This document shows, one piece after another, positions 5,036 to 62,297 of a stretch of DNA of 64,000 nucleotides (within the stretch, counting starts at the first letter, position 1; each line of letters begins with the position of its first letter). The translations under genes were made by a program, and so were the position numbers. The DNA lies in contig NW_027103286.1 in NCBI RefSeq assembly GCF_902728285.1, forward strand, positions 3,356,497 to 3,420,496, given 5' to 3'. The stretch comes from Clytia hemisphaerica (taxonomy: Eukaryota). Under the pieces are notes generated by a model. That model ran no database searches. It worked only from the letters and a program-made list of their open reading frames with translations, and was not told where the DNA came from.

Positions 5036-7453
5036 TCAATCAATGAAACCAACGCCATGGATAAAAGTGCGACAGTTTCGGCAAGGACAAGTAGTGGGCC
5101 TCCATTGCTTGATTTCTTTTTTAAATTCATCTAGGTTTTTAAGTTTTTTAAAGTCATCGGGAAGGGTAGCCCAGATTTTAGGTCCCAGGAAAGCTAAAGA
5201 CGATTTTCCATTCATTTCACTTTCAACTACTCTACTACGAAAGGAATTCATTTTTCTCGTTTTGATCTTACATTGGTTTTTGAGAAATATTTTACTTTCT
5301 GATTCATTGAGTTTTGATTTAAATAGCTCTGTGGATAAGGATTGAATTGCTCGTTGATGGAAGGTGGAACTGTTGTCAAGTTTCAACAGATCATCGAATG
5401 ATGAGTTGTAGTCTGAGTAAACGATTCTCAAGCATCTTTTATGTAGATTGTTTATTTTATCCTCTAGAGCTCTGCTATGAAACATCCATATGAGAGGACA
5501 GTAATTGAAGTGGCATTTAATGAAAGCATTCATCAAGCGTTTCTTTTTTTCTAAAGTGAGATATGTGCTCATTCTGGCTAAGGCGGTTATTTTCAAACTA
5601 GCTTTCTTGCAAAGATTTTCTATATGCGATTCAAACGTCAAAAGATTATCGAAGGTTACTCCAAGAATCTTTGACGTTTTGGTATTGAAAACAGTTTCTT
5701 CTCTAATATTTAGATAGAGCGAGTCGTCAATGATGTTAACTATTAGCTGACATTTGTCAGCATTACCAACCATTTGATTAATCGAAAGCCATGTGAAGAT
5801 TTTTTCTGCTCCAGAGCTTAGTTTACCACTTACTTCAATCCAGGTAGGAGCACCAACATAGGGTGTCGTATCGTCCGCATAATTCGCAACCTTAGTATCC
5901 TCAATGATGAAAAAGAGGTCACAGATATAAATATTGAAAAACAGAGGGCCAAGGATTGATCCCTGGGGAACACCATCCTTGATCTTGATCCAGTTACTCA
6001 GTTCGTTGCCTACTTTTGTCCTTTGTTGCCTATTTTCTAGATAACTCTTGACTAACCCAGTGGAAAGGTCATCGAACCCGTATGCACTGATCTTTGCTAC
6101 AAGTAATCTGTGGCACATGCAGTCAAAGGCCTTAGAAAGGTCGATGAGCAGTGCCCCAAAAACATCTTTTTTGTCATTGGCTAGCTTCCAGAGCTCTTCC
6201 ATTGGGAGAAGAGAGGTTTGAGTGGAATATCCTTTCCTGAAACCACATTGTTGTTCATCAAAGTAGTGCTCAAAGTATTCTGATATTTGATTGTGATATA
6301 CTCTTTCGTAAATTTTGGATATTACCGGCAGTATACTTATTGGTCTATAGTTACTTTTATCGTTTTTAGAATTTTTCTTGTAGACTGGGGTGACTGTCGC
6401 GAACTTGGAAATGTTGGGAAAAAAGCCTGAGCTGAAGGAGTCATTTATGCTTATAGAGAAGCAGCTTGCAAATAAGTGAGAGTATTTTTTAATTATTTTC
6501 GCTGGTATATCATTTTCCGCTTGAGACTTATTTGTCTTAAGGTTACTAATTATCTTCTCTACTTCGTCTTCGGTGGTGTTTCTAAACTTGAAGGAGTTTT
6601 CATTGTTTGATACCTTTTCTTTTATTTTGAGTATACTAGGGTGGTTTCTAAAAAGCATTATTTCATTTTGAAGAATATTATCAGAAAGTTCATTGAGAGG
6701 CACTGGTTCTGTTGGTGGTTGATTGAGATCTAATTTTTCAGTGATATTTATGAAGAATTCATTAGACATTTTTGCAATTTCTTTATCATCTTTAATCAGT
6801 TCATCATTTTCGACTAAGGTTATTTTCTCACTTATTGGTCCTTTATTAGAGAAAAAAGGGCGCACAGTTTTCCAAAATCTTTTATTGTCAGTGATTTGCT
6901 TTTCATCCAGAGATTCATAAAATCTTCTTTTAGTGTTTCTCAGAAGATATAAGCATCGGTTTCGCTGTTGGTTGTAATTATATTTGTTGATGTTAGAGGG
7001 GTCTTTTCGTTTAATGTTATTAAGTCGAGATCGATGCATCATGGCCTTTCGTAGTGATTTTGTCATGAAAGGTTTATCATTACCTCTTAGTATTTTAGTT
7101 TTTATCGGTGCTTCAGCGTTTAGAAGATTTACTACACTTTTCATTTTATGTTCAAAGTTGCGATTCGACTCTAGTACTTGTGTTAAATGATTTTTGAAAA
7201 GATCTTCGTTAAGATTTTTGTAGCATCTATATTTAATGGCTTTAGGTGGACACTTTTCAAAAGTGGTTTTTAAGACGCTTATTGTGATGTTGTGAAAGTC
7301 CGATAGGCTATTAGATACAGAGGAAGAGCCCTGAAAAATTCTTTGGTAATTTGTTAGCATCAGATCAATGCATTTCGGATTTTCTGCGTTTTTGAAGCAC
7401 GTAGGTTCATTTATCAAGCTAGAAAGCTCCCTGCTAGCAAGAAACTCAGGCAT
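5036..7453 (-). CDS. LINE ORF2 reverse-transcriptase domain ORF (805 aa).
   Basis: ORF track plus RT motifs (FxDD/YADD box, QG box). Confidence 0.85.
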   Translation of the reverse strand: MPEFLASRELSSLINEPTCFKNAENPKCIDLMLTNYQRIFQGSSSVSNSLSDFHNITISVLKTTFEKCPPKAIKYRCYKNLNEDLFKNHLTQVLESNRNFEHKMKSVVNLLNAEAPIKTKILRGNDKPFMTKSLRKAMMHRSRLNNIKRKDPSNINKYNYNQQRNRCLYLLRNTKRRFYESLDEKQITDNKRFWKTVRPFFSNKGPISEKITLVENDELIKDDKEIAKMSNEFFINITEKLDLNQPPTEPVPLNELSDNILQNEIMLFRNHPSILKIKEKVSNNENSFKFRNTTEDEVEKIISNLKTNKSQAENDIPAKIIKKYSHLFASCFSISINDSFSSGFFPNISKFATVTPVYKKNSKNDKSNYRPISILPVISKIYERVYHNQISEYFEHYFDEQQCGFRKGYSTQTSLLPMEELWKLANDKKDVFGALLIDLSKAFDCMCHRLLVAKISAYGFDDLSTGLVKSYLENRQQRTKVGNELSNWIKIKDGVPQGSILGPLFFNIYICDLFFIIEDTKVANYADDTTPYVGAPTWIEVSGKLSSGAEKIFTWLSINQMVGNADKCQLIVNIIDDSLYLNIREETVFNTKTSKILGVTFDNLLTFESHIENLCKKASLKITALARMSTYLTLEKKKRLMNAFIKCHFNYCPLIWMFHSRALEDKINNLHKRCLRIVYSDYNSSFDDLLKLDNSSTFHQRAIQSLSTELFKSKLNESESKIFLKNQCKIKTRKMNSFRSRVVESEMNGKSSLAFLGPKIWATLPDDFKKLKNLDEFKKEIKQWRPTTCPCRNCRTFIHGVGFID

Positions 7454-28002: not shown

Positions 28003-30080
28003 ATGCCTGATAACATCGATCCTCTGAATCTCTTCAGAAAATCAAGTCTTAATATAGCTCATTTAAACGTGAATGGCCTTAGGTCGAAGCTTTATTTCTT
28101 AAAACTTCTCCTTCACCAAGAAAAATTTGATATTCGATGTCTGAATGAGACTAAAATTGACTCGACAATCACTGATAGTGAAGTCTCTATACCTGGGTAT
28201 TTACCCTGTAGGCTAGACCGCGAACATTCTTTCACGATGATTGATCCCAATTTTTCAAATAGCCCTCACGCTAAAGATTGTTCAATTGCTAATATTGGAA
28301 TAAGTGACCATTCAATTGTTTTTCAAAGAAGAGAGAAACCAATATCAATAGACCAAGGACCATAACCGCCAGGTCCTTTAAAAACTTCAACCAAGAGGCT
28401 TTTCTCGAAGACCTAGGGAATCTCGACTGGTCTGACATGCTCAACTCTACTAATGTAGACGAGGTGGCTGATATCTTTAACACCAATGTGCTAGATGTAC
28501 TTGACCGTTATGCTCCTATGGTTTAGAGAAGGATAAGTCATGATAGCCCTCCATGGGTCAACGAGGTACTACTTAATGTTGAAATTCTTAGCCGATCTCA
28601 ATCAGGTTTCCGAAACAAGTATTCAACTGATACAGCAGTTATTTGTGTGTCAGACTTTATATTAGAAGAGCTTGGGAAAGGGAAGTATGTTGGGACTGTA
28701 TTAGTAGATCTCAAGAAGGTCTTTGACACAGTAGATCATAAAATTCTTTTAAAGAAATTATTCTGCTATGGATTTAGGGACTCCTCATTCTCCTGGTTTG
28801 AATCTTATCTGTCAGACCGTCTTCAATGTACACTCCTAGGAGATACTTGCTCGGACATGATGAACGAATGCGCATACGGGGTTCCACAAGGATCGGTCCT
28901 CGGACCATTGTTATTTCTCCTTTATATAAACGATATTGGTCAAAGTATTCGACCTTCTGTGTTCCACTATCTTTACGCAGACGATACCATCATTGCTGTC
29001 AGTTCTGACTGCCCCGTGAGGCTTAGAAAAGATCTATCTGGCCAACTTTCTGAAGTCGGACATTGGTTCAGCCAAAATAAACTCACGGTAAACACGGGCA
29101 AAACCGAAGTCATATATTTTGGAAGAGCAAACAAACTGAAGGAATGCAAGAGGTTGGTCCCTATCCAATTTCAAGGCGACACTCTTGAATGCAAGGAGAA
29201 AATGAAATATCTCGGTGTCATCTTTGATGAAAACCTAAAATGGGATGCCCAGGCAATAGTGCTCGCCAGAAAGCCTATCTCAAACTAAACAAAAGGCATC
29301 TCTAGCTTTCTTGAAGATCACATGAAAAAAATGCTTTTAAATGCTCTTGTTATGCCACACATTACATATTGTTCCAATTCTTGGAGCACTATGTCAAAGG
29401 CAAACCACAACAAGTTTGATTCAGTCCTGAGCAACATCTCTAAAACCATGCCCATCAATAAGACACAAGTATGCAAGGACGTGAAGGTCGAACCGACATC
29501 GACCACCTTGTCAGGGGAGACTTTTGAAACTAAAACGACCAACATCCAAGACCATGCTCGTCTCGACATTGCTGCTAGGGGATTTTGGATTCCTGGCCAG
29601 AAGGCATTCTTCGACGTAAGGGTTTCAACCCAATCGCCAAAAAGTTCAGGAATTCCACTATCTCCAAAGCATGCAATGCAAACGAAAGGGATAAAAAGAA
29701 CATTTATAATTCAAGAATCATGAAAGTTGAGCAACGTCTCTAAAACCGTGCCCATCAACAAGACATTTGATCAGATTGTCGAATACAATAAAACACTGAT
29801 GATGTTCAAAGGGATGCGCAACATTGCGCCAAAATATTTGTGTGATCGGGTAAAGCCTGCTAGCGAGCGACATGAACGCCGCACTCGCTTTGCAAGAGAG
29901 AATAAAGTCTTTGTCCCTCTTTCCAAAAACACTTTTGCTAGTCGAACGTTCATTACCTCAACCACACATCTGTGGAACAATCAACCTTTAGAAATAAAAC
30001 AATGTGAATCCCTTTTATCGTTTAACACTATTTTTATTAGGGGGGTGTTTTCCACAAGCCTAGCACTCTTTTGCTAATAA
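28003..30080 (+). mobile_element. Decayed CR1/L2-like LINE (EN fragment 28003-28365, RT fragment 28647-29288, C-terminal region 29322-30077), with internal deletions and a short internal duplication.
   Basis: EN: LNIAHLNVNGLRSKL...IRCLNETK. RT: GTVLVDLKKVFDTVDH, AYGVPQGSVLGPLLFLLYIND, YLYADDTII. C-terminus: LNALVMPHITYCSNSWS. A duplicated block LSNISKTMPINKTQ (29440) / LSNVSKTVPINKTF (29730). Confidence 0.8.
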
Positions 30081-46545: not shown

Positions 46546-47519
46546 CTTGTCTAAAAATAAATCCGAAAACTCATACAATAGAATGTCGGTAAAGTGTTTC
46601 AGAAGAGTGATAATATTGAATTTTGAATAAATACAAGTCAATCAAAAACAGAACATACCTTGAAAACCAACTTCTCTGAAATGGATTTGAAATTTTGTAC
46701 TGAATTCAATTCAAATCCTTTTTATCTGTTTTGCCAATTAACATTGAACGCGAAGACACTTCTCCTAACCGCCTTTTTGTTGTTGAAAAAATGTTCCTTT
46801 CTGCAGAGATGTGGTTTCGAAAGGATTGTTAAGCCGGAAGAACGTGTTACCCGAACAACAAAAAGATATCACGATTAATTATCTCTGGAGGTCATTAAAA
46901 TAATTACCTCTGAAAGAGGAACACTTTTTTTTTAAAGGTATCCCAATATCATTCTGTAATTATTTTGTTTTGACGCAGAACGTTTCGCTCAAAGCACTGA
47001 AGTTTGCATTATTCTATTACCCTGCTAAAAAACCCACCTCTTTCTATGTTGAAATTCCAAGCGATATTGTCATAAACGGGAACATTTTACGATAAGGAAT
47101 GCAAAACTATCATGAACGGAGAACTTTTTCCAGGTTGAATTTCATCGTAAATAATAGTTTTCCTTGCTGTCAAGAAATACTTAAGGAAAGTTTACATTCT
47201 CAGAGATGTAAAAATTTCAATCCCCAATTTTCCTTGCTGTCGGCTTCTTGAAAACGTTTTACGTTTTTCCCAAAAAAAACTATTTGGCAAAGGATGCAAA
47301 TCTATCATTAGTAAATCTTAGAGAACATACAGCAACGAAGAACATTTTTCAAAAGCCATCTGCTAAATTTTGCGCATCAGTAGGCACTGCGTGAAATTGG
47401 GGAGTTTTCTCATTTTCAGCAATGTTGCTGGCTTCAATGGATTTTACAGAAGAACTGGTATGATTTTTTTGATGATTGAAAAAAGATCTGAAATCTTGAT
47501 ACATTAAAAGAACATTCAA

Positions 47520-47720
47520 AATATTTGGAGCCTCCGGTTTTCAGTTTAAAGCCTAAAAATGTTCTTAACCTGTTCTTATTATCACCATTTTGTGAGTATT
47601 TTTGTCTACTTTCCTACAAAAATAGGAGTGTTCTGAACTTGTTCTTAATACTGTATTTTGGCCATCGAAGCTTTATGTTCTTAATGTTTGTTCGTATAAA
47701 AAAAACGTGTATTTGATAAA
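47520..47720. repeat. 'aagaacat' interspersed repeat copy.
   Basis: aaaatgttcttaacctgttcttattatcaccattttgtgagtatttttgtc...ttttggccatcgaagctttatgttctt...aaaaacgtgta. Confidence 0.6.
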
Positions 47721-48362: not shown

Positions 48363-49690
48363 CTAAATATAACTATCAATAACATTTTTCCATTCCACAC
48401 GATTCAAAGCTTTCCCATACCACTCACATTTCAATATACCAACTTTATTCAAACTTTTGTAAACTCCACGCCCATACGTGAATTCAGGGGCCCCGCGTGG
48501 GCGCCTTTCGCTAACCCAGCATGTCAGCATCTTACGGGGCAAACGATCAGAGGGCATTCGGGTTACGTGCCCTAACCAGCGTAGTTGGCGACGTGTAACA
48601 TATACATCAATAGAGAGCAAACCAGTGCGCTCAAGCAATTCAGCCGTCGAAATTCGGTGGGATCTCACATGATTTAAGTTAACACGGCATATGGTGCGGA
48701 CACAACGAGCATGAAAAACTCTCAACTTTCTATAAACAATTTCAGTAAGGCACCAGTGCTCAGAGCCATATAACAAAATCGCCAGAACAATGCCTTCGTA
48801 GACAGATTTTTTTGCTGCGAACGAAACATTAGTAGAACGGAATAAACAATTTCTCAAAGCTCCAAACGCACTGCTGGCTGCTTTTATTCTCGACTCGACG
48901 TCAAGGGTATCTTTACAATCACGCGATAGGATTGACCCCAGGTAACAAAAACGATCGACGATCGGCATATGGGATGCATCATCGATTTTGACATTACCAA
49001 GATTCGTATTATCGAAAGACAGGGGATCGGTATAGGTTTGGTTCGGAGCAGAAACAAACAAAATTTCAGATTTAGAGCTTTTCTCTTCGGTACCAACATG
49101 GATTTCTAGACCGAATCTTAGAAAATGCTTGACTAGTGGTGGAAGGTAGGTTTCGACAGAGCTTCTTGATGTGAATAGAACTCCGGTATCGTCAGCATAC
49201 TCAGAGTCCGGTAACGAAAACTGTTCACATTTTTTAGTTGAAGGTCGTCTACCGGTTAGGATATCGTCAAACTTGGTGTGAAAGATACAGACTTCTCGTG
49301 TGTGAGTGGTTCTCCAAGATATCATTACAGCAGCAAGGTAGAAAATGAAAAGGAGTGGACCCAGTATATCACCCTGTTTGACACCAATTATACTTTCGAT
49401 CCTTTTAGTGATGTCATTTACAACAAACTTAACTTCCACATTTGCGTGAAGTGATTTAAGCAGACGTACAAGTTTATCAGGGACACCAAAAATATATAAC
49501 ACTTCCCAGAGAAGCTCGCGCGGTACTCGATCAAAGGCTTTGACCAGGTCGAGAAATAATATCCAAGTCTCTTGGCCATGTTCCCTGCGCTTTTTCATTG
49601 CCATTTTTACTGTGAAGATCCCGTCAACACATCCACGCCCAGGACGAAAGCCGCACTGGGGTTCATGGTCAAGGATCTGCTACCACCTCA
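48363..49690 (-). mobile_element. 5'-truncated non-LTR retrotransposon fragment (RT domain, RTE/L2-like).
   Basis: 413-aa ORF 48363..49604 with FLDLVKAFDRVPRELL, GVKQGDILGPLLFIFYL, EYADDTGVLF. An upstream extension QILDHEPQCGFRPGRGCVDGIFTV (to ~49690) ends abruptly, as expected for 5' truncation. Confidence 0.85.
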
Positions 49691-50395: not shown

Positions 50396-51729
50396 TCAGG
50401 AGATACCAAGATATTCTCTGAGACATTTCGGTAGATTATCATTCAGAAAGGTGTCACTGAAACTTCTCAAGCAAGCCATTCGTGCGATATGTTTCAAGGA
50501 GATTTTCAAATGATTATATGGTGGAGTTACTTTCGCAAATTGTAGCACACTGTTTGGATTTCGGAATGCTATCTCCTGCATGTGTAAATTGAATGAAAAG
50601 TCACCAATCCATCTCTTGAAATCATGAATTATACTTTGTTCTCCCGATCCAAAATCATACAAATAAATTGACGCGAATCGTTTGTTTCCTCCTGGAGTGA
50701 CTTGAAGGCCAGTGATGAAGTACTGCCCAAAACATTCCACAACTTTGTTGAAAAAGATATGTTTTCCTTGGTAAAGCAAATTGATTATTTTCAATGGGAT
50801 AACCTCATTTTTGCTGTTGACTTGAAAGAATTTTAAGCTTTTTACCCTCGTTTTGATATCGCTCAAGTGCATAAAGAATACAGATTTTGACAAATGGTAC
50901 AACATTTGATCCTCGAAAGTCTCTTTTTCATCATCAATAGTCACTCGTTCAGCCAGAACTTGATTTCCTGAAAAATCGAAACCATATAAGAACGGACCAT
51001 ATAATCATAGTCGTGGATAAAAATTCTCTCCGAACTAATATCTATGGACAGCTGGAGATCTATGTGGGATGTGTCGAATGTACCGGGTTCGAAACTAAGC
51101 TCAGTACAATTACTCAGCACAACACGCTTGAAATGTGATAGCTTTGTCTTGTCCATTAAGACAATATCAGCCACAAAATTAAAACCACCGGTAGAAACAA
51201 GCACCATTAAGGCGTAACCATATTCTTTGGTTTTTCCCTGCCAAAAACATTGGATGCACTGCAAAGCTTTATATGGCTCCAGTTCAATGACACAATCCTC
51301 CGTTTCTTGAAAAGTGGTTGATACAATACTTCCTGGAGGAGCACCTAAAAGGTGTTTCATGCTTCCACTATGTAATATCAAAGGTTGGCTCCCATCTTCC
51401 AAAGTCGAAGGCTTCTCAAACACAAACCAACGATTAAGTGAAGCGTTATAGGGCCAATCACATTCTAAAAAATTAGAATCGTTCCACGTTGGTAATTTAA
51501 TCAAACTCATTTGTAATTTAGCTGTTTCCTCATTGAATGAATAAACAGCGATGACATGATCATCTGTGCTGTCCCATGGCCTGGTATATGAAGTATAATA
51601 TCTTCCAGAGCTGTCAAAGCCACACACAGTTCGGTATACGGGCGGGTCAAGTCCAGTCCACGTTTCTTTTGTCTCTACACATTCGGTGAGATGAGGTGGT
51701 AAGAACACTTGCCGTGGGTAAGCCAACAT
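50396..51729 (-). pseudogene. SOCS-box family copy 1, split into two overlapping ORFs by a frameshift near 50941 and ~13 bp shorter than copies 2 and 3; divergent (~60% aa identity) apart from its first ~25 codons.
   Basis: ORFs 50941..51729 (MLAYPRQVFLPPHLTECVETKE...) and 50396..50944 (...NHLKISLKHIARMACLRSFSDTFLNDNLPKCLREYLGIS) are collinear with the 448-aa copies but in different frames. Confidence 0.55.
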
Positions 51730-51789
51730 TCCTTTTTTGATATTTGAGGATTATCTTAACTCGTTTGCATTTTTATTCCTGAAAAAACA

Positions 51790-52040
51790 AAAACAGATTA
51801 TACGATGGCGAAAGTGTTAAGAACAAGTTAAGAACATTTTAAGGCTTTGGCGACTTTTAAACACCCGATTTCTTAGGAAAACGGACAAAAATACTCAGAA
51901 AATGCTGAAAATAAGAAAATAAGAACATCTTAAGAACATTTTTTGGCTTAAAATCAAAAAAGTTAAAAGCATCAGAACATCCGAAGACTTCAAAAATTTT
52001 GGATGTTCTCATAAAAAGAAGACGTGTATGGACTGGAGCA
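51790..52040. repeat. 'aagaacat' repeat copy (reverse orientation) just upstream of SOCS-box copy 1; the same repeat sits upstream of copy 2 (55215-55500).
   Basis: Reverse-complement match to the 31205-31450 family; 51730-52060 is ~95% identical to 55130-55500. Confidence 0.6.
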
Positions 52041-52079
52041 TAATAGGTCATTCTTCAGTAGCCTAGAAATCTAAGCTAG

Positions 52080-52260
52080 TTTGATTCAGTCACTTGGATA
52101 AATCTGATGGTTAAGTTGTGACTGAATAACTAGTATTCCAAGGCAAACTTAAAATCCGTAAATATAAAAAATCTTTAAAGCGCCGAAAAACGCTATATTG
52201 CCATAAGCCGTGTGTCCTAGCCTTGTGAATACGGGCTTAGTTAACTAGGCTAATTCTTCA
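52080..52260. repeat. Insertion of the 27540-27660 repeat family (inverted) in duplication unit 1; it is absent from the unit-2 paralogous position (~55500).
   Basis: See 27540-27660. The flanking sequence cattcttcagtacccttgacaataaat.atggattgattttttggcc is shared with 55501-55560. Confidence 0.55.
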
Positions 52261-53783
52261 GTACCCTTGACAATAAATAATGGATTGATTTTTTGGCCTA
52301 TTCCACAGAAAAATTAGCCTGTACCACCCCGAATGCCAACAGGCGATTTTGTCTTTTCTGCAAAGAAAAGTTTGGTACAAGTTCCAAAGAATGTATTTAG
52401 AGAATTGAGAGGGGTTACGCAAATGAAGACAGACAAACATTTTCATTGAAAGACTGACATGACAGGCAAGACTTGCAAGGTAGAAAAGTGCGTAAAATAT
52501 CGATGAATTTAAAAATTTCGTAGTCATGATTGATACCACGAGATAGAAAATGATATTAAGAGATTTACAAATTATGATAGGATATACAGTCATTGAAAGC
52601 GGAGAGTCTAACCTAAGATAGAGTGGTCTACCAGTTGTCATCAAACATCATAAAAGATGCGCCCAAGAGATGAAAATTTTCACAATGTCCAGAATTGAAA
52701 ATTAGATTTAAGTCTCAGACACAAAAAATGGCACCTGTTTGTGTAATTTACAGACCAGAATAGCAGGTTTGCAGGTTAAAGTGATTTTTTAAAAACCTTT
52801 TTAACAGTTTTTTTACTCTGCTTAAAGCTTTCAACAATACGTCAATGAATTAATTTTTGCTGGAGAATTTGATCGCTGACACTTGATTGATGTTCGAGGA
52901 ATGATTTTTTATAAATTCTTTTCCCTAACTTTCTCAGATTTTTGATGGACACTACACAATTTTCGCAGTGACTGCCGGGTGTGCCAGAAATAAATTAGCT
53001 TCTTGGATTTGATATTGTAGACAGTAGAAAAGAGATTTTTCAAAGTTTTTTTTCGGAATCAATCAGAAGAAACTTAAAATTTGGTGTATTACTTCTTAAT
53101 TTTACTGCATTAGTTTAAAAGTTATGTTCAAAAACTTAAAATGTCAATTCTAAAAAATCGATTTCATGCATCAGGAAATGTATTTCCATTATGTAAAAAG
53201 CACTTATTTACAAGGTTAGGCATCCCTGTAAATACATTCCATCATCTGTGAATCGAGATGAGCTGCAACAGTTTTGTGCAACTTTTGCAACTTCAAATTT
53301 TGTGAAAGTGAAACTCTCACCTTTCTCAACGATATGATGCACACACAGGAAAACTTTTGGAAATTCTTGGAAAGATGTTGAAAGATTTGTGGGGGTTGAA
53401 GCATTCTGCATCTTGCCCAAGGGGAAAAAACAATAGAGGTAAAGAAAGCAGAGTGTTACAAGGAGTAAGACTTTAAAATGTTTTGGCCTGCAAGTCCTTT
53501 CTCTCATAAATCGATACCCTTGTTTTTAGCCTTTTGACAATTTTTAAAAACTAACATTTTAGGTTTTTGAACATAACTTTTGAACCGATGAAGCAAAATT
53601 AAAAAGTAATACACAAAATTTTAAGTTAGGCTTTCTCTGAACGATTCCGAAACAGTCTTTGAAAAATAATGTTACTGCCTGCAATATCAAGTCAGCGAGG
53701 GTTACTTATTTCTGGCACACTCGGTATATATAAAAAAATTGTCAGAAACTTTGTTTTAAATTTACTCTAAATTTTGCGTCATT

Positions 53784-55130
53784 TCAAGCGAGTCCAAGAT
53801 ATTTACTGAGACATTTCGGTAGATTGTCCTTCAAGAATTCGTCATGAAAACTTTTCAAGCAAGCCATTCGTGCCATATGTTTCAAGGACATGTTTAAATG
53901 ATCAAAAGGAGAATTCACTTTTACGAAGCGTAGATAAGGGCTTGATAAATACATCAAACTTGCTGTTGGGTCAAAAAGCGCTATTTCCGCCATATGCCAA
54001 TTAATTGAAAAACCGTAAATTTCTCTTCTACAATCGTACCGGATCATCAGTTCTCCTGATTTGAAGTCGTACAAACAAACCGAATGAAATGGTTGGGAGC
54101 CTGCTTCTGAAGTGACTTGAAGGCCTTCGACAAAAAATTGATCAAAACATCCAACGACTTTGTGTAAAATAATATCGTTTCGTCCATGACACAAATTAAT
54201 TCTTTTCAATGGGATGACCTCATTTTTATTGTCGACTTGAAAGACCTTTATGCTTTTTGCCTTCGTGTCAACGTTCTCCAAAAAAACATAGAAGATCGAG
54301 TTTGACAAATGATATAAATCATTAAAATTCTGAACACCTTCCCTTTCGGAGATTGTGACTTCATAATCCATAAGGCGATTTCCCTCAAAATCAAAACCAT
54401 ATACCATACCATATTCATAATTATGAAGGTAAATTCTCTTAGAATTCATATCTAGCGATACACCAGAATTATGGAACGCAAACGTTCTAGGTTCGAAATC
54501 CATTTCAGTGCAACTGCTCAACACAACACGTTGGAAATGTGAAAGTCTTTTTTCGCCTATTAAAACGATGTCAGCCACAAAATTGTAACCACCAGGAGAT
54601 ACAAGCACCATCAAGACGTAACCATATTCTTTGGTTTTTTCCTGCCAAACACTATGGATGTAATGAAAAGCTTTATATGGCTCCAGTTCAATGACACAAT
54701 CCTCCGTTTCTTGAAAAGTGGTCGATACAATACTTCCTGGATAAGCATATAAAAGGTGTTTCAAGCTTCCACTGTGTAATATCAAAGGCTGGCTCCCATC
54801 TTCCAAAGTCGAAGGCTTCTCAAACACAAACCAACGATTAAACAAAGGATCATACGGAAAGTCATATTCATTATAGCGCAAGTTCCATGATGGTAATTGA
54901 ATTAAACTCACTTGTAGTTTATCTGTTTCCTCATTGAATGAATAGACGCTTATGATATTGTCACCTGCTTTATCCTCAGCTCCGCAATATACGGTGTAAT
55001 ATTTCCCAGAGCTGTCGAAGCCACTCATACTTATTTGCTGGGGGCGGTCAAGACCAGCCCACATTTCTTTTGTCTCAACACATTCGGTGAGATGAGGTGG
55101 TAAGAACGATTGACGTGGGTAAGCCAACAT
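53784..55130 (-). CDS. Intronless gene (copy 2 of a tandem triplet) for a 448-aa protein with a C-terminal SOCS-box-like motif and an uncharacterised ~400-aa N-terminal domain.
   Basis: Uninterrupted ORF with ATG at 55130. C-terminus ...SPFDHLNMSLKHMARMACLKSFHDEFLKDNLPKCLSKYLGLA resembles the SOCS-box consensus (SLqHLCR..I........LPLP..L..YL). Confidence 0.6.
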   Translation of the reverse strand: MLAYPRQSFLPPHLTECVETKEMWAGLDRPQQISMSGFDSSGKYYTVYCGAEDKAGDNIISVYSFNEETDKLQVSLIQLPSWNLRYNEYDFPYDPLFNRWFVFEKPSTLEDGSQPLILHSGSLKHLLYAYPGSIVSTTFQETEDCVIELEPYKAFHYIHSVWQEKTKEYGYVLMVLVSPGGYNFVADIVLIGEKRLSHFQRVVLSSCTEMDFEPRTFAFHNSGVSLDMNSKRIYLHNYEYGMVYGFDFEGNRLMDYEVTISEREGVQNFNDLYHLSNSIFYVFLENVDTKAKSIKVFQVDNKNEVIPLKRINLCHGRNDIILHKVVGCFDQFFVEGLQVTSEAGSQPFHSVCLYDFKSGELMIRYDCRREIYGFSINWHMAEIALFDPTASLMYLSSPYLRFVKVNSPFDHLNMSLKHMARMACLKSFHDEFLKDNLPKCLSKYLGLA

Positions 55131-55214
55131 TCCTTTTTTGATATTTGAGGATTATCTTAACTCGTTTGCATTTTTATTCCTGAAAAAACAAAAACAGATT
55201 ATACAATGTAAGGT

Positions 55215-55500
55215 GTGATCTACACGTTCTTTTCTATAAAGAACAAACTATATAAGAACATGAAGCTTCAATGGCCAAAGTGTTAAGAACAAGTTAAGAA
55301 CATTTTAAGGCTTAGGCGACTTTTAAACACCCCATTTCTTAGGAAAACGGACAAAAATACTCAGAAAATGGTGAAAATGAGAAAATAAGAACATGTTAAA
55401 AACATTTTTAGGCTTAAAATTAAAAAGGTTAAGAACATCCGAAGGCTTCAAAAATTTTGGATGTTCTCATAAAAAGAAGACGTGTATGGACTGGAGCATA
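55215..55500. repeat. 'aagaacat' repeat copy upstream of SOCS-box copy 2.
   Basis: As for 51790-52040. Confidence 0.6.
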
Positions 55501-55974
55501 ATAGGTCATTCTTCAGTACCCTTGACAATAAATTATGGATTGATTTTTTGGCCTATTCCACAGAAAAATTAGCCTGTACCACCCCGAATACCAACAGGCG
55601 ATTTTGTCTTTTCTGCAAAGAAAAGTTTGGTACAAGTTTCAAAGAATGTATTTAGAGAATTGAGAGGGGTTACGCAAATGAAGACAGACAAACATTTTCA
55701 TTGCCTAAAGACTGACATGACAGGCAAGACTTGCAAGTTAAAAAATTCGTAAAATATCGATAAATTTAAAAATTTCGTAGTCATGATTGATACCACGAGA
55801 TAGAAAATTATATTAAGAGATAAACAAATTATGATAGGATATACAGTCATTGAAAGCGGAGAGTCCTTTTTTATGAATTATAAAATTGTATAAAATGGTT
55901 ATTTTAAAAGTGTATAAATATTATGAAAATAATAAATAATTTTTTGCAAAATCCGAAATTTAAATATAAGATGG

Positions 55975-56340
55975 CATGGAATGAACCCCCCCCCCAGCCC
56001 GCAGGGGGGGGGGGCTATAACCAACATCTTCCTGAAAAGGCTGGGGGCTGGATTTTTTTTAAATTTCAGGGGGTACCTATGAACTCTGGGGGCACCTAAC
56101 TTTTATACAGTAAGGTCTGGGGGCTGGGGAACTATATTTTATATCTTGCTTTTATCTAACTATCATTATTCTTTTTAATTATAAAAATATACAATTTTTT
56201 CATTTCTTGACATATACTCAAGTCATAGAGGGTACCAATCACAGGGGGTACCTACTAACGTCTGTTGTTTGGGGGTACCTAAAATTCAGGGGGTACCTAT
56301 TTTCTTAGGAGTACCTAAACCCCTGGTCCATGCCATGGAT
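55975..56340. mobile_element. MITE with catggcatgg-type termini, C/G homopolymer runs and internal 'gggggtacct' repeats.
   Basis: gatggcatggaatgaaccccccccccagcccgcaggggggggggg ... repeated gggggtacctat/gggggtacctaa ... cccctggtccatgccatgg. Confidence 0.5.
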
Positions 56341-56871
56341 TGGGAATGATAAGATACTTTCATAATAGAATTTGATTGATTCAAATGACCACGTAAAAAA
56401 TATTCTCTCTTTGCAGTGAACTTTCTCAAATTGAATTGATCCCTTTTTATCTGGCTGGGGAGATAAGATAAGTATTAATTTTTATAATGCGTTCTATCAA
56501 ATAACTTGATAAATTCTATCAGAAGTTAAAAGGTCAAAAGCGAGCCATAAAAAATCTTCAACCTAAGATATATAACCTACCAGTTATGCTAAACATTACA
56601 GAAGTTATGCGCAAAAGATGAACATTTTCAAAGTGCTAGAATTGAAAATTAGATTTAATTAAGGACTTATTTACAAGGTTAGGCATCCCTGTAAATACAT
56701 TCCATCATCTGTGAATCGAGATGAGCTGCAACAGTTTTGTGCAACTTTTGCAACTTCAAGTTTAGTGAAAGTGCAACTTTTACCTTTCTCAACGATATGA
56801 TGCACACACCTAGGAAAACTTTCGGAAATTCTTGGAAAGATGTTGAAAGATTTGTGGGGGAGAAGTAGATT

Positions 56872-57290
56872 TATGACAGAGCTGGCACATACAGAAGGTG
56901 AGTGACACTACAGAAAGTGAGTGACACTACAGAAAGTGAGTGACACTACAGAAAGTGAGTGACACTACAGAAAGTGAGTGACACTACAGAAAGTGAGTAC
57001 ACTACAGAATGTGAATGACACCTGTGAACTTATTCTTTAGGTAGTGCTGGAGGTGTTGAATTTGACCCATGTGTTGCAATTTTAGAAACACTCATTGGTC
57101 GAATTCCGGTGTTTTTGGGTGTTTCCGATAGGGAACATGACTTTAATGCTTTTATAGATAACCAGAAAATTATTTACAACTTGAAACTTACTCTGTGATG
57201 ACACTCACTTTCTGTTAGGTGTCATTCACGTTCTGTAGTGTACTCACTTTCTGTATGTGCCAGCTCTGTCATAAATCTACTACCTGGGGG
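56872..57290. mobile_element. Complete MITE with ~30-bp TIRs (gaagtagatttatgacagagctggcacat / atgtgccagctctgtcataaatctactac) and subterminal 20-bp tandem repeats, inserted in duplication unit 3. The paralogous empty site is at ~53400.
   Basis: 56860 gatttgtggggg|a gaagtagatttatgacagagctggcacatacagaaggtgagtgacactacag(x5)... ...ttctgtatgtgccagctctgtcataaatctactac|ctgggggtagaggtattctgcatc. Unit 2 has gatttgtgggggttgaagcattctgcatc uninterrupted. Confidence 0.75.
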
Positions 57291-57717
57291 TAGAGGTATT
57301 CTGCATCTTGTTTATGCCCAAGGGAAAAACAGAAGTAAAAAAAAACAATAGAGATAAAGAAAACATAGAGTGTTACAAGGAAAAAGACTTTGTACTTTAA
57401 AATGTTTTGGCCTGCAAGTCCTTTCTCTCATAAAACGATACCCTTGTTTTTAGCCTTTTGACAATTTTTTAAAATTGACATTTTAGGTTTTTGAACATAA
57501 ATTTTGAACCAATGAAGTAAAATTAAAAAGTAATACACCAAATTTTAAGTTAGGCTTTCCTCTGAATGATTCCGAAACAATCTTTGAAAATCTTTCTGTT
57601 ACTGCCTGCAATATCTAGTCAGCGAGGGTAACTTATTTCTGGCACACTCGGTATATACAAAAAATTGTCAGAAACTATTTTATTTTAAATTTAGTCTAAA
57701 TTTTGTGTCATTTCAAC

Positions 57718-59064
57718 TCAAGCGAGTCCAAGATATTTAATGAGACATTTCGGTAGATTGTTCTTCAAGAATTCGTCATGAAAACTTTTCAAGCAAGCCA
57801 TTCGTGCCATATGTTTCAAGGACATCTTTAAATGATCAAAAGGAGAATTCACTTTTACGAAGCGAAGATAAGGGCTTGATAAATACATCAAACTTGCTGT
57901 TGGGTCAAAAAGCGCTATTTCCGCCATATGCCAATTAATTGAAAAACCGTAAATTTCTCTTCTACAATCGTACCGGATCATCAGTTCTCCTGATTTGAAG
58001 TCGTACAAACAAACCGAATGAAATGGTTGGGAGCCTGCTTCTGAAGTGACTTGAAGGCCTTCGACAAAAAATTGATCAAAACATCCAACGACTTTGTGTA
58101 AAATAATATCGTTTCGTCCATGACACAAATTAATTCTTTTCAATGGGATGACCTTATTTTTATTGTCGACTTGAAAGACCTTTATGCTTTTTGCCTTCGT
58201 GTCAACGTTCTCCAAGAAAATATAGAAGATTGAGTTTGACAAATGATATAAATCATAAAAATTCTGAACACCTTCCCTTTCAGAGATTGTGACTTGATAA
58301 TCCATAAGGCGATTTCCCTCATAATCAAAACCATATAACATACCAAAATCATAATTATGAAGGTAAATTCTCTTAGAATTCATATCTAGAGATACACCAG
58401 CATTACTGAACGCAAACGTTCCGAGTTCGAAATCCATTTCAGTGCAACTGCCCAACACAACACGTTGGAAATGTGAAAGTCTTTTTTCGCCTATTAAAAC
58501 GATGTCTGCCACAAAATTGTAACCACCAGTAGAAACAAGCACCATTAAGACGTAACCATATTCTTTGGTTTTTTCCTGCCAAACACATTGGATGTAATCA
58601 AAAGCTTTATATGATTCCAGTTCAATGACACAATCCTCCGTTTCTTGAAAAGTGGTAGATACAATACTTCCTGGAAGAGCACCTAAAAGGTGTTTCAAGC
58701 TTCCACTGTGTAATATCAAAGGCTGGCTCCCATCTTCCAAAGTCGAAGGCTTCTCAAACACAAACCAACGATTTAACAAAGGATCATACGGCAAGTCATA
58801 TTCATTATAGCGCAAGTCCCATGATGCTAATTGAATTAAACTCACTTGTAGTTTATCTGTTTCCTCATTGAATGAATAGACGCTTATGATATTGTCACCT
58901 GTTTTATCCTCAGCTCCGCAATATACGGTGTAATATTTCCCAGAGCTGTCGAAGCCACGCATACTTATTTGCTGGGGGCGGTCAAGACCAGCCCACATTT
59001 CTTTTGTCTCAACACAATCGGTGAGATGAGGTGGTAAGAACGATTGACGTGGGTAAGCCAACAT
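57718..59064 (-). CDS. Intronless gene (copy 3) for a 448-aa SOCS-box-like protein, ~93% identical to copy 2.
   Basis: ORF with ATG at 59064. C-terminus ...FDHLKMSLKHMARMACLKSFHDEFLKNNLPKCLIKYLGLA. Confidence 0.6.
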   Translation of the reverse strand: MLAYPRQSFLPPHLTDCVETKEMWAGLDRPQQISMRGFDSSGKYYTVYCGAEDKTGDNIISVYSFNEETDKLQVSLIQLASWDLRYNEYDLPYDPLLNRWFVFEKPSTLEDGSQPLILHSGSLKHLLGALPGSIVSTTFQETEDCVIELESYKAFDYIQCVWQEKTKEYGYVLMVLVSTGGYNFVADIVLIGEKRLSHFQRVVLGSCTEMDFELGTFAFSNAGVSLDMNSKRIYLHNYDFGMLYGFDYEGNRLMDYQVTISEREGVQNFYDLYHLSNSIFYIFLENVDTKAKSIKVFQVDNKNKVIPLKRINLCHGRNDIILHKVVGCFDQFFVEGLQVTSEAGSQPFHSVCLYDFKSGELMIRYDCRREIYGFSINWHMAEIALFDPTASLMYLSSPYLRFVKVNSPFDHLKMSLKHMARMACLKSFHDEFLKNNLPKCLIKYLGLA

Positions 59065-59719: not shown

Positions 59720-62297
59720 TTATACAGTCAATTCCTGTTTTACGGTGGTTTCAGCTGTCTCGTTCAAAGAAACAGCATTCTGTGCAGTTTTATTGAATTC
59801 TTTGCCTAACTGCTCAATGACACTGGTTAAGTATGCGGGGAGTGCTTTGAAAGGAGTCGTGGAAGGTGTGAAGAAATGATGACTTCTGCGTGCTAACAGA
59901 CGAAGTGCTTTCCATTGGAAGTTTGGTTTATTCACGATCTTGTATTCGTCCTCTATACCGGCTTCTGGATCTGCTTGTTCAACTGCTTCCTCGAAGAAAG
60001 GTTCCAGCTGTGGAAGGAATTTCAATCTACTCTCTGCTTTGCATGCCTCCATGTTATCTGACAAATGAGAAACAAAAGATGACTAAGTATTCGAAATAGA
60101 AGCTGTCCATCAGGCTTGATATTAATTTGGAGTAAAGCCTCATTGGATATAGACAGTAATCTCAAAACTTAGCCATGACCACCAGGTTTTAACAGAAAAA
60201 TCTTACTTAAAGATATAGTGGTCAAGCTAAAAGTTTTTAACCGCTTTAAAAAATTTCAAACTTACCTGGACAGAGGTTCCATAATTTGGTGAGTTCAGGT
60301 GTACCAAGATTGATCTTTTTCTTTGTGTTATTTAAGAATTCATCTCCTACACTTCTCTTCACACCTCGTGTCTTGACCATTCGTTTCCCTCTCATCACCT
60401 CTCGGACCTGAGGCTTTGGTGCAGTCAGCTTCTGTTCAGCTTTGGCAAAGGATTGGCAGCCTTCGTTCTTCCAAGAAATCCAGTTCTCCTCACGAGTTAA
60501 CACGTGTCGGACGACGTTTGCAAATTTCTTTCCTTTTGGAGGTGTATCGTTTATAATGCCATAAACACGATCAACCAACTCGTGAACCCAGAGTGATTGT
60601 TTCTCAAGCAGTTTATAATTGGCTTGTGTTTTAAACTTAACCTCGCCTGTCAAATACTGACACAAAATCAAGATTTGGACAAGGAAATATCGACGAAAAT
60701 TACTATCATTGATTTGAAGGTCCAACAACTTTTCGTTGGTAAGATATTTAGGGAAATAATCTGCGTTCCCGCTTGTGCTCATAATGTCAGCAAATGTAAC
60801 GTCGTCAACTGCATTGGATCCTCCTTTGCTGCGTTTCTTTTCGTTGTATTCGATCTTGTAGTTCTCAAACACATTCAGAATCTAAAATTCAAAAAGTATG
60901 ATAACAGTTGAAAATGCTAAAAAGACAAACAAGAAATTAGCCTACAATACTTTGAGCTGCAGGAGTTTGGTTAAACTGCCATTTAAAAACACTCAAAGCA
61001 GATAAGCTTTCAAGCACTTATAATCTCGGAACAGATTCTGATATTCTGCGCATGACACGCATTCACTCAAGAGAATCTGCCCAGGTTGGTGCACCGCTTT
61101 GATCTTTTCTCAAAATTACTGTCAAGCTATTTAAAAATTCTTCTCTGACTCTTTATCCCTTTAGGCATCTATTCCTTAACTTTTTATGCAAAATATCTCA
61201 AAGAGCCTAAAATGAGACCCCTCCCCCTCCTCTTATCTCAAGATTAAAGTTGTGCAATAAAGTTGGAAATTTGACCAGTAATAGATATTGCTAAATAAAG
61301 ATGATTTGCGAAATTTTTGGTCATCCATCATCCACACTGTTCAAATTTCACGAAACAATATAAGTCCAATAAAAATTTTTCAATCAAGGGAGAGGAGGGG
61401 GCTTTGTGCCTCCAAGATACGTGAAGGGTTAAAAGTCCTATAACTGTTGCTATACTAGGTAACCTAGACCATACTTACTTCAGTAACATAGTTCTTGAAC
61501 TTTTTCCATCCCTCTGGTTTGAAGCATTGGTTAGGCTGCCTGAAAAAATCCTGAAGGAACCAAAATCGATAATATAGATTGAAATCAATAGGACTTGCAA
61601 CCTCTGGGATGTCAGTATCGTTATCATCAAGGAGAGCCTCCATATTGAATTCCTCTTTGTTTTTCTTGTAAACAGTCAAGTTTTCTGTGTGAAACTGACT
61701 CATAATGTTCAATGCTGATTTCTCTTCCACTGGGAATAAACAAGCTAAGAACAGTTGAATGCGACCACAAAAGATAGTGTTCAGAGATTTTGAAAGTCTT
61801 CGAAGGATATCATTGCACATGCGCAATAGGTGATTTTTACCAAGTTTGAAAAAAGGTTCAGCTGTCCATATCTTAACATTGTCCTCTACAAAATTGAAAA
61901 GTTTTTCACATTCAGTCAATGTTAAGGCATCAAAAATATCACTCATCAATGTGATTGGAAGGTAGGATGTGCACTTGTTTTGTTGAGCGTGGAGAATAAT
62001 CATATTCAATGAATTTTGGAACAATGTGATTTTCTCAAATGATGTATCTCCATTCTTGACAATTTCCATGTCTGTGCCATCTTCGTTTTGATGGCCGACA
62101 ACAACACAACTATCTGTTATCTTACCAGCAATGAATTGTCGGAAAGCTTGATCTAACGCTGATTTTTTATCTGCATCACCACCAGTGCAATCATTCCACG
62201 TTTCCTCTATGACCTTATCACAATCATCGTTAGCTATCGAACGAATTGCTGACAGAAATTTTTCAACCGTCTCCACAAAATTTATTCCACTTGCCAT
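59720..62297 (-). CDS. THOC1: THO complex subunit 1 (THOC1/Hpr1) orthologue; three exons, 590 aa, with no C-terminal death domain.
   Basis: Exons 61479-62297 (ATG 62297), 60266-60881, 59720-60057; GT-AG junctions in phase (1773 nt = 591 codons). Matches to human THOC1: LLRMCNDILRRLSKSLNTIFCGRIQLFLACLFP ~ LLRMCNDLLRRLSKSQNTVFCGRIQLFLARLFP; YLTNEKLLDLQINDSNFRR ~ FLTSEKLMDLQLSDSNFRR; WISWKNEGCQSF ~ WNSWKNEGCPSF; TKLWNLCPDNMEACKAES ~ TRLWNLCPDNMEACKSET; FFEEAVEQADPE; WKALRLLARRSHHFF. Confidence 0.9.

Follow-up and report, generated by a model that had tools for sequence, protein, structure and literature searches.

A tandem array of genes for putative β-propeller/SOCS-box proteins in Clytia hemisphaerica

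Organization of the locus

The stretch of DNA considered here, referred to below as the window, consists of 64,000 nucleotides of the genome of Clytia hemisphaerica (NCBI RefSeq assembly GCF_902728285.1, contig NW_027103286.1, positions 3,356,497 to 3,420,496 of the forward strand), numbered from its first letter. It contains a tandem array of three copies of a gene for a protein of about 450 residues, a candidate substrate receptor of a ubiquitin ligase. The three copies lie on the minus strand and were found by the list of open reading frames (ORFs), a repeat finder, self-BLAST and tblastn; their similarity is far above chance (BLAST E = 0). Copy 1 (50396-51729, minus strand) carries one frameshift. 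Copy 2 (53784..55130, minus strand), which was the query for the structure model, and copy 3 (57718..59064, minus strand), which has a 5' flank of its own on the side of the THOC1 gene, are both intact ORFs of 448 codons, predicted to encode a β-propeller followed by a SOCS box. No fourth copy was detected in the window by tblastn and self-BLAST, and there are no N gaps anywhere in it.

An earlier note, made from the sequence alone, had placed three minus-strand copies at these positions, described copies 2 and 3 as intact and about 93% identical and copy 1 as divergent and frameshifted, and all of this holds. The proteins of copies 2 and 3 share 418 of 448 residues (93%; 96.7% identity at the DNA level), whereas copy 1 is 54–69% identical to copy 2 in protein, depending on the segment, and 74% identical in DNA. 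The spacing of about 3.9 kb given in the same note is right for copies 2 and 3 (3934 bp from start to start) but not for copies 1 and 2, which are about 3.40 kb apart.

The array does not consist of a simple unit, a gene plus its flanks, repeated three times, as had been supposed, since the flanks are shared pairwise. Copies 1 and 2 have a common 5' flank, which is 97–100% identical near the ATG: the spacer upstream of copy 1 (51730..53395, minus strand) is duplicated upstream of copy 2 (55131..56860, minus strand) with 2.8–4.2% mismatch and several indels. Copies 2 and 3 have in common the coding sequence (CDS) and the 3' flank, that of copy 2 (53425..53783, minus strand) being duplicated downstream of copy 3 (57340..57717, minus strand) with 6.4% mismatch. 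The 5' flank of copy 3 and the 3' flank of copy 1 are not shared.

A single frameshift, at about 50999-51000 (50999..51000, minus strand), divides copy 1 into the ORFs 51729-50941 and 50944-50396. It consists of two additional bases, which amount to a 1-nt deletion, within 'gattatatgg'. The 243 N-terminal codons (51001..51729, minus strand) are identical up to the frameshift to the Clytia hemisphaerica UniProt entry A0A7M5TQR3, a public model which ends there. The 200 C-terminal codons and the stop (50396..50998, minus strand) include the SOCS box. When 51001-51729 is joined to 50399-50998, a frame of 443 residues without any stop is obtained, so that the frameshift is the sole lesion. With this one lesion only, and with a historical dN/dS of 0.35 (see below), copy 1 could be a pseudogene of very recent origin, or the frameshift could be an error of sequencing. 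An environmental homolog (P0001, on contig L002), which is 70% identical to copy 1 in DNA, is also interrupted, at a different site: on L002 (1040-1364), the ORF ends after codon 313 and the remainder, including the start of the SOCS box, is in another frame.

The only UniProt entry at the locus is the truncated model of copy 1, and copy 2 is not covered by any recorded gene call. The intact copies 2 and 3 appear to be unannotated genes.

Origin of the array

Copy 2 is a chimera, with a 5' flank of the copy 1 type and a CDS of the copy 3 type. All 31 informative sites between positions −60 and −1 group copy 2 with copy 1, whereas in the CDS from position +18 onwards 364 of the 382 informative sites pair it with copy 3, the other 18 pairing it with copy 1. 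The switch occurs between −1 and +18, in a junction (55113..55131, minus strand) of about 19 nt which is identical in all three copies. The divergence is similar over the whole duplicated block: 2.8–4.2% in the spacer, 3.3% in the CDS and 6.4% in the 3' flank.

The comparison of copy 1 with copies 2 and 3 gives a synonymous divergence (dS) of about 0.75 and a dN/dS of 0.35, which indicates long-term purifying selection. Between copies 2 and 3, dS is 0.042 and dN/dS is 0.75 (44 substitutions), a ratio compatible with neutrality (P = 0.45) and above 0.35 (P = 0.03).

The array probably formed in two steps. First, copy 1 and the progenitor of copies 2 and 3 would have parted through an old duplication. 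More recently, the two paralogs would have crossed over unequally at their near-identical 5' ends, which added the third copy (about 3–6% divergence). The chimeric junction, together with the similar divergence across the block, is what a single crossover of this kind is expected to produce. It would have duplicated about 3.4 kb and given the middle gene the upstream region of copy 1; later indels and insertions resembling transposable elements (TEs) would have made the spacing unequal.

Several repeats lie in the flanks. An insertion of about 420 bp, of the foldback or miniature inverted-repeat TE type (56864-57281), is bounded by inverted repeats about 90 bp long, at 56864-56952 and 57192-57281, which are 89% identical, and contains tandem repeats. 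Only the spacer that separates copies 2 and 3 has this insertion, which explains much of the difference between 3.4 and 3.9 kb. A dispersed repeat of about 185 bp, whose members are 77–82% identical, occurs at 52975-53158, in the 5' flank of copy 1, and in inverted orientation at 53540-53724 and 57464-57651, which belong to the 3' flanks of copy 2 and copy 3, respectively. A weak repeat connects 47509-47711 with 55221-55467 and 51860-51953.

The duplication that gave copies 2 and 3 could also be an artefact, if the assembler had laid two haplotypes of one gene side by side as a false tandem duplication. The divergence of 3–6% and the several indels are within the range of heterozygosity of marine invertebrates, and the protein of neither copy is found in the public Clytia protein sets. 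However, the borders of the duplicated block coincide exactly with paralogous homology, at the 5' ends common to copies 1 and 2, which is predicted by non-allelic homologous recombination and not by an arbitrary junction between haplotypes. The stretch has neither gaps nor runs of N, the spacers bear distinct TE-like insertions, and the way the 382 coding sites divide, 364 against 18, also argues against such an artefact, which is very unlikely.

The earlier note had taken the lack of introns as a sign of a retrogene origin followed by tandem duplication; in such a history, a processed retrogene would have been inserted at the locus and then triplicated as a uniform unit of 3.9 kb. The CDS is indeed uninterrupted in all three copies, and the neighbouring THOC1 gene has several exons. 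The units, however, differ from one another, and unequal crossing-over at the DNA level, with a mapped junction, accounts for the newest copy. No parent gene is known, and no remnant of a poly(A) tail was seen: there is no run of more than six A within 400 nt of the stops of copies 2 and 3 (target-site duplications were not searched for systematically). A run of nine A about 230 nt downstream of copy 1 is unremarkable at 36% GC.

The CDS is also uninterrupted in two environmental homologs, which means that any retroposition would predate the family and would not be a feature of this locus. The single coding exon therefore looks like a family trait, and a retroposition, if there was one, would be ancient. 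An insertion of a retrogene at this site is quite improbable.

A polypyrimidine-AG site resembling a splice acceptor is present about 46–50 nt upstream of each ATG (at 51779 for copy 1, 55180 for copy 2 and 59110 for copy 3), which counts against a retrogene. Similar sites are found in the two environmental homologs (at about 1–9 on contig L001 and 46–57 on L002). These sites suggest an intron in the 5' untranslated region or spliced-leader trans-splicing, and trans-splicing has been reported for the ancestor that Clytia shares with Hydra (PMC3273482). The leaders of copies 1 and 2 also contain an upstream ORF of four codons plus a stop (ATGCAAACGAGTTAA).

Distribution and conservation of the family

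Word-indexed homolog searches return only 2 and 4 matches, and one of the 2 is copy 1 itself. Only an exhaustive HMMER search with a profile, run over 1.84 billion cluster representatives, brings out the family: it gives 62 relatives (E ≤ 1e-3), many of which are full-length (420–480 residues) and have the same C-terminal motif at their end. With names looked up for all but about 40 of the 62, every named relative is from Clytia hemisphaerica: these form at least 11 clusters with less than 50% mutual identity, and most bear TCONS transcript-model identifiers. The other relatives are environmental contigs from ENA, JGI or Logan. As far as can be seen, the family is lineage-restricted. No relevant literature was found on this family in Clytia or in cnidarians.

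Averaged over the paralogs, the identity is 52% for the SOCS box and 20% for the propeller. A conserved docking module combined with a diversified recognition domain is the pattern that would be expected of interchangeable substrate receptors.

The predicted β-propeller

The N-terminal domain of about 400 residues had been left unassigned in the earlier note, and searches with a single sequence do not assign it either: the only match in Pfam is a weak one to PLAT, and a sequence search of the PDB gives nothing. The PLAT match (E = 0.03 on the whole protein) was rejected; it falls inside blades 5 and 6 of the predicted propeller and recurs only in copies 2 and 3.

The model obtained with AlphaFold2 for copy 2, from an alignment of 34 sequences, has a mean confidence (predicted local distance difference test, pLDDT) of 83.8 and a predicted template modelling score of 0.84. 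In it, seven blades of four strands each, which an N-terminal strand apparently closes, are followed by three short helices; the number of blades was read from the secondary-structure string of the model and from the fold matches. With only five aligned sequences the pLDDT is 47 and the model is unusable. The model and the fold matches thus assign the domain, as a prediction, to a divergent seven-bladed β-propeller. The fold matches include KLHDC10 (9d8p), a propeller-type receptor of the Cul2 cullin-RING ligases (CRL2) bound to Elongin B/C.

The divergence is such that none of the 34 members matches the WD40 profile (PF00400) at E ≤ 1; there is one weak match to ANAPC4_WD40 (E = 0.22). When the full-length family profile is compared with the PDB, the best match is a WD40 blade of ATG16L1, which is marginal (E = 0.024). 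The matches of this profile to RecU and NSF-N were dismissed as noise.

The C-terminal box

The earlier note had recognized a SOCS-box pattern at the end of the proteins, and the C-terminal sequence that it quoted is correct. The Pfam SOCS_box profile (PF07525, 39 positions, gathering cutoff 23.5 bits), which it had suggested as a check, does not retrieve the window copies above its cutoff. Whole proteins from the window give no match, and among the 34 family members a single one does (E = 0.14). When C-terminal fragments are used, the score is 13.1 bits for copy 1 (E = 0.11) and 12.5 bits for copy 3 (E = 0.19), both over positions 4–38 of the 39 of the model, and copy 2 gives no match. At the level of the family, 15 of the 34 C-terminal fragments match PF07525 (E ≤ 10; best E = 1.9e-4), which is the sole recurrent Pfam family.

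The C-termini of the family were also aligned by hhalign with ten reference SOCS boxes, nine human ones and that of ASB8 taken from the PDB, all of which score above the Pfam cutoff (25–65 bits). The probability is 93.4% (E = 2.6e-7, 33 columns, score 31.3). In this alignment the SLKHxAR segment of the family faces SLQxLCR, and LPxxLxxYL faces the second half of LPLPxxLxxYL, so that BC box and cullin box are in register. Shuffling the columns of the reference 150 times gives scores of 8.8 ± 2.1, with a maximum of 15.3, and reversing it gives 10.9, compared to 31.3 for the real alignment. A Clytia paralog, A0A7M6DRM4, is named 'SOCS box domain-containing protein' in UniProt. Izumo1 and a C-S lyase, the top PDB matches of the C-terminal profile, cover only 'F..YL..LP' and were rejected as chance.

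The C-terminus thus reads as a genuine, if divergent, SOCS-type Elongin-BC/cullin box at the level of the family profile. The proposal of the earlier note stands at that level and does not extend to the individual window copies, which are all below the Pfam threshold.

Solved SOCS boxes have a three-helix topology. The structure prediction, the other check that had been suggested, does show three short helices at the extreme C-terminus of copy 2: a predicted BC-box helix (416–427) and two predicted cullin-box helices (430–436 and 439–444). The box of copy 2 covers residues 415–446 (SLKHMARMACLKSFHDEFLKDNLPKCLSKYLG; 53793..53888, minus strand). Those of copies 3 and 1 are at 57727..57822 and 50405..50500, respectively, on the same strand.

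The motif of the family is [STN]-L-K-H-x-[AS]-R-[LM]-x-[CV]-L-...-Y-L-x-x-x-L-P-x-x-L-x-x-Y-L-G-[IL], in which L, K, R and P are invariant. Columns 6–15 of the family alignment (n = 34) contain S, T or N, then L (34/34), K (34/34), H, any residue, A (26/34) or S (4/34), R (34/34), L or M, A, and finally C (25/34) or V (7/34) at the hydrophobic (Φ) position. The consensus of BC boxes is (S,T,P)LXXX(C,S,A)XXXΦ (PMC3355856). The BC box of the family conforms to it, that of copy 2 being S-L-K-H-M-A-R-M-A-C, and the downstream xxLxxYL part of the cullin box is retained.

Proposed function and alternatives

In each protein, a highly divergent β-propeller of seven blades would precede a SOCS box which is divergent as well and is made of a BC-box helix and a two-helix cullin box. 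Given this order of domains, they are probably lineage-specific adaptors which select proteins for ubiquitin tagging. Through its SOCS box, each of them would attach to Elongin B/C and to a cullin, either Cul5 or Cul2, accompanied by a RING partner, and its propeller would bind a substrate. The proteins would then serve, in the manner of WSB1 and WSB2, as interchangeable receptors for the substrates of a cullin-RING ubiquitin ligase of the Elongin-BC type. The account as a whole, in which a family of propeller–SOCS-box receptors limited to one lineage is represented here by an array that arose by an old duplication and a recent unequal crossover, is given a probability of about 0.7.

The earlier note had linked the motif to Cul5. 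The sequence does not establish this specificity, whereas the lineage restriction which the note had also proposed is supported by the named relatives, which are all from Clytia. The LPΦP motif is described as required for the binding of Cul5 (PMC4812663), and in the family its first 'LP' is replaced by variable polar residues and N, R, K or H. In SOCS1, whose Cul5 box is incomplete, the binding of Cul5 was not detected (PMC4812663). The consensus of the Cul2 box, ΦPXXΦXXXΦ, located 8–23 residues on the C-terminal side of the BC box (PMC3355856), fits the L-P-x-x-L-x-x-Y-L of the family equally well: the stretch L-P-K-C-L-S-K-Y-L begins 12 residues past the BC box. Nematostella, a cnidarian, is reported to have both Cul2 and Cul5 (PMC2785787).

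The box might then be of the VHL type, a BC box followed by a Cul2 box, in which case the proteins would be CRL2 receptors recruiting Cul2-Rbx1 and not Cul5; the presence of KLHDC10 among the fold matches goes in the same direction. However, the Cul2-box pattern is loose and does not discriminate, since canonical Cul5 boxes satisfy it as well. Taken as a whole, the profile resembles SOCS boxes, including the distance from BC box to cullin box and the terminal YL, and the invariant proline (P30) is the fourth position of LPΦP, which has been singled out as the most important one (PMC3355856). A VHL-type box is possible, although on the unlikely side.

Several observations weigh against the proposed receptor function. 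No window copy attains the Pfam gathering score. The hhalign matches of single sequences are weak (10.7% with E = 0.003 for copy 2, 57.6% with E = 1e-4 for copy 1), and ASB8, the sole end-to-end match of the C-terminal profile in the PDB, is not significant (E = 1.3). The confidence of the structure model across the SOCS box is just pLDDT 66–76. The canonical cysteine of the BC box is replaced by alanine, which the consensus permits and which ASB8 has too, and LPΦP is reduced to x-[N/R/K/H]-L-P (for instance x-N-L-P), without its first two residues, the proline being invariant. As for the genes, the exact proteins of copies 2 and 3 are absent from a collection of 15 billion sequences and occur in no public protein set, and one of the two may be decaying, the dN/dS of 0.75 being indistinguishable from neutrality.

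The low scores, the alanine and the incomplete LPΦP are also what a degenerate relic of a SOCS box would show, in proteins which recruit neither Elongin BC nor a cullin and which would serve simply as propeller-based scaffolds or binding proteins, outside any ligase. Yet the box is the part of the protein that is best conserved across the paralogs, far better than the propeller, with invariant L, K, R and P. This conservation points to strong purifying selection on a binding interface, whereas a relic would decay. Alanine is within the BC-box consensus (PMC3355856) and is found in ASB8, a protein for which the PDB contains complexes. The relic is an unlikely explanation, and a functional Elongin-BC docking module is preferred.

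A more speculative idea concerns the targets of such receptors. The family might have a lineage-specific role driven by conflict, as hydrozoan-specific, fast-evolving receptors which are repeatedly reshuffled by unequal crossing-over. Their targets would be, for instance, viral, transposon or non-self proteins, or regulators specific to gametes or to stages, along the lines proposed for the expanded F-box and MATH-BTB adaptors of nematodes. The atypical cullin box might also confer a distinct cullin preference. This is improbable as it stands.

Comparison with known substrate receptors

The closest analogs in terms of domain order are WSB1 and WSB2, which are substrate receptors of Cul5 cullin-RING ligases: an N-terminal seven-bladed β-propeller of about 400 residues precedes a C-terminal SOCS box of about 35–40 residues, according to the domain scheme of SOCS-box proteins (PMC4812663), and the presumed role is the same. 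The Clytia family differs from them in that the WD40 profile of Pfam gives no signal in any of its 34 members, the BC-box cysteine is replaced by alanine and LPΦP is incomplete. It is also an expansion in one lineage, with 62 relatives, compared to the large pan-metazoan WSB family. No orthology to WSB is detectable among the 62 relatives of the exhaustive search, no WSB sequence having been compared directly.

By sequence, the nearest solved SOCS box is that of ASB8, which has in common with the family the TLKxLAR...LPxSLKEYL pattern and an alanine at the position of the BC-box cysteine. Unlike the Clytia proteins, ASB8 retains the full LPLP, and its substrate domain is made of ankyrin repeats, not of a propeller.

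The KLHDC propeller is a six-bladed Kelch. KLHDC2, KLHDC3 and KLHDC10, the CRL2 receptors with a VHL box, are comparable to the Clytia proteins in that a propeller-type receptor bound to Elongin B/C (9d8p) is among the fold matches and in that the LPxxLxxYL of the family fits the Cul2-box consensus (PMC3355856), but the Clytia box resembles SOCS boxes overall.

As for the evolution of the family, it can be compared to the lineage-specific expansions of F-box and MATH-BTB adaptors in nematodes, in which a conserved ligase-docking module is combined with a fast-diverging recognition domain. Both also have numerous paralogs, some of them duplicated in tandem, and a pseudogene here and there. The differences are that the docking module is here a SOCS box and that the Clytia family is much smaller, with tens of genes.

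Neighbouring genes and repeats

The gene that lies next to copy 3 on its upstream side, in the same orientation, has several exons and encodes THOC1 (THO complex subunit 1; 59720-62297, minus strand, with exons that include 59720-60064, 60246-60872 and 61464-62297). It is identified by the Pfam efThoc1 family, which matches three consecutive ORFs with E values of 1e-50 to 6e-15 over positions 5–483 of the 490 of the model. An operon-like polycistron running from THOC1 through copies 3, 2 and 1 was envisaged, all four genes being on one strand and acceptor-like sites being present, and was set aside, the spacers being 2–2.6 kb long.

ORFs of retroelements, probably of the non-LTR (long terminal repeat) type, are located at 5036-7453 (minus strand), 28647-29288 (plus strand) and 48363-49604 (minus strand). 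RVT_1 matches the first (E = 1e-29) and the last (E = 5e-15), which is just downstream of copy 1. An uninterrupted ORF of 1141 codons at 19797-23222 (plus strand) encodes a Q/P/T-rich protein with N-terminal 'QPTQ/ATQQ' reiterations and no Pfam match; the GC content rises locally (0.40–0.44) and the AT skew is strongly positive. Two further ORFs, of 206 codons at 12127-12747 (plus strand) and 154 codons at 14754-15218 (minus strand), encode hydrophobic N-termini which resemble signal peptides, and have no Pfam match.

Significance

The family is new, and its kind is well known. Its existence is not mechanistically surprising and leaves the understanding of the ligase mechanism unchanged. The locus itself is a clean case of gene birth by unequal crossing-over, in which a junction mapped to 19 bp swaps the promoter region between paralogs.

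The putative propeller–SOCS-box proteins add an undescribed, lineage-restricted family to the catalogue of SOCS-box/Elongin-BC substrate receptors. With at least 11 divergent paralog clusters and the array described here, they would represent an independent cnidarian expansion of this class of adaptors. Most members of the family are labelled "uncharacterized". Since Clytia is a genetic model, the family supplies candidate E3 receptors which standard domain annotation has overlooked.

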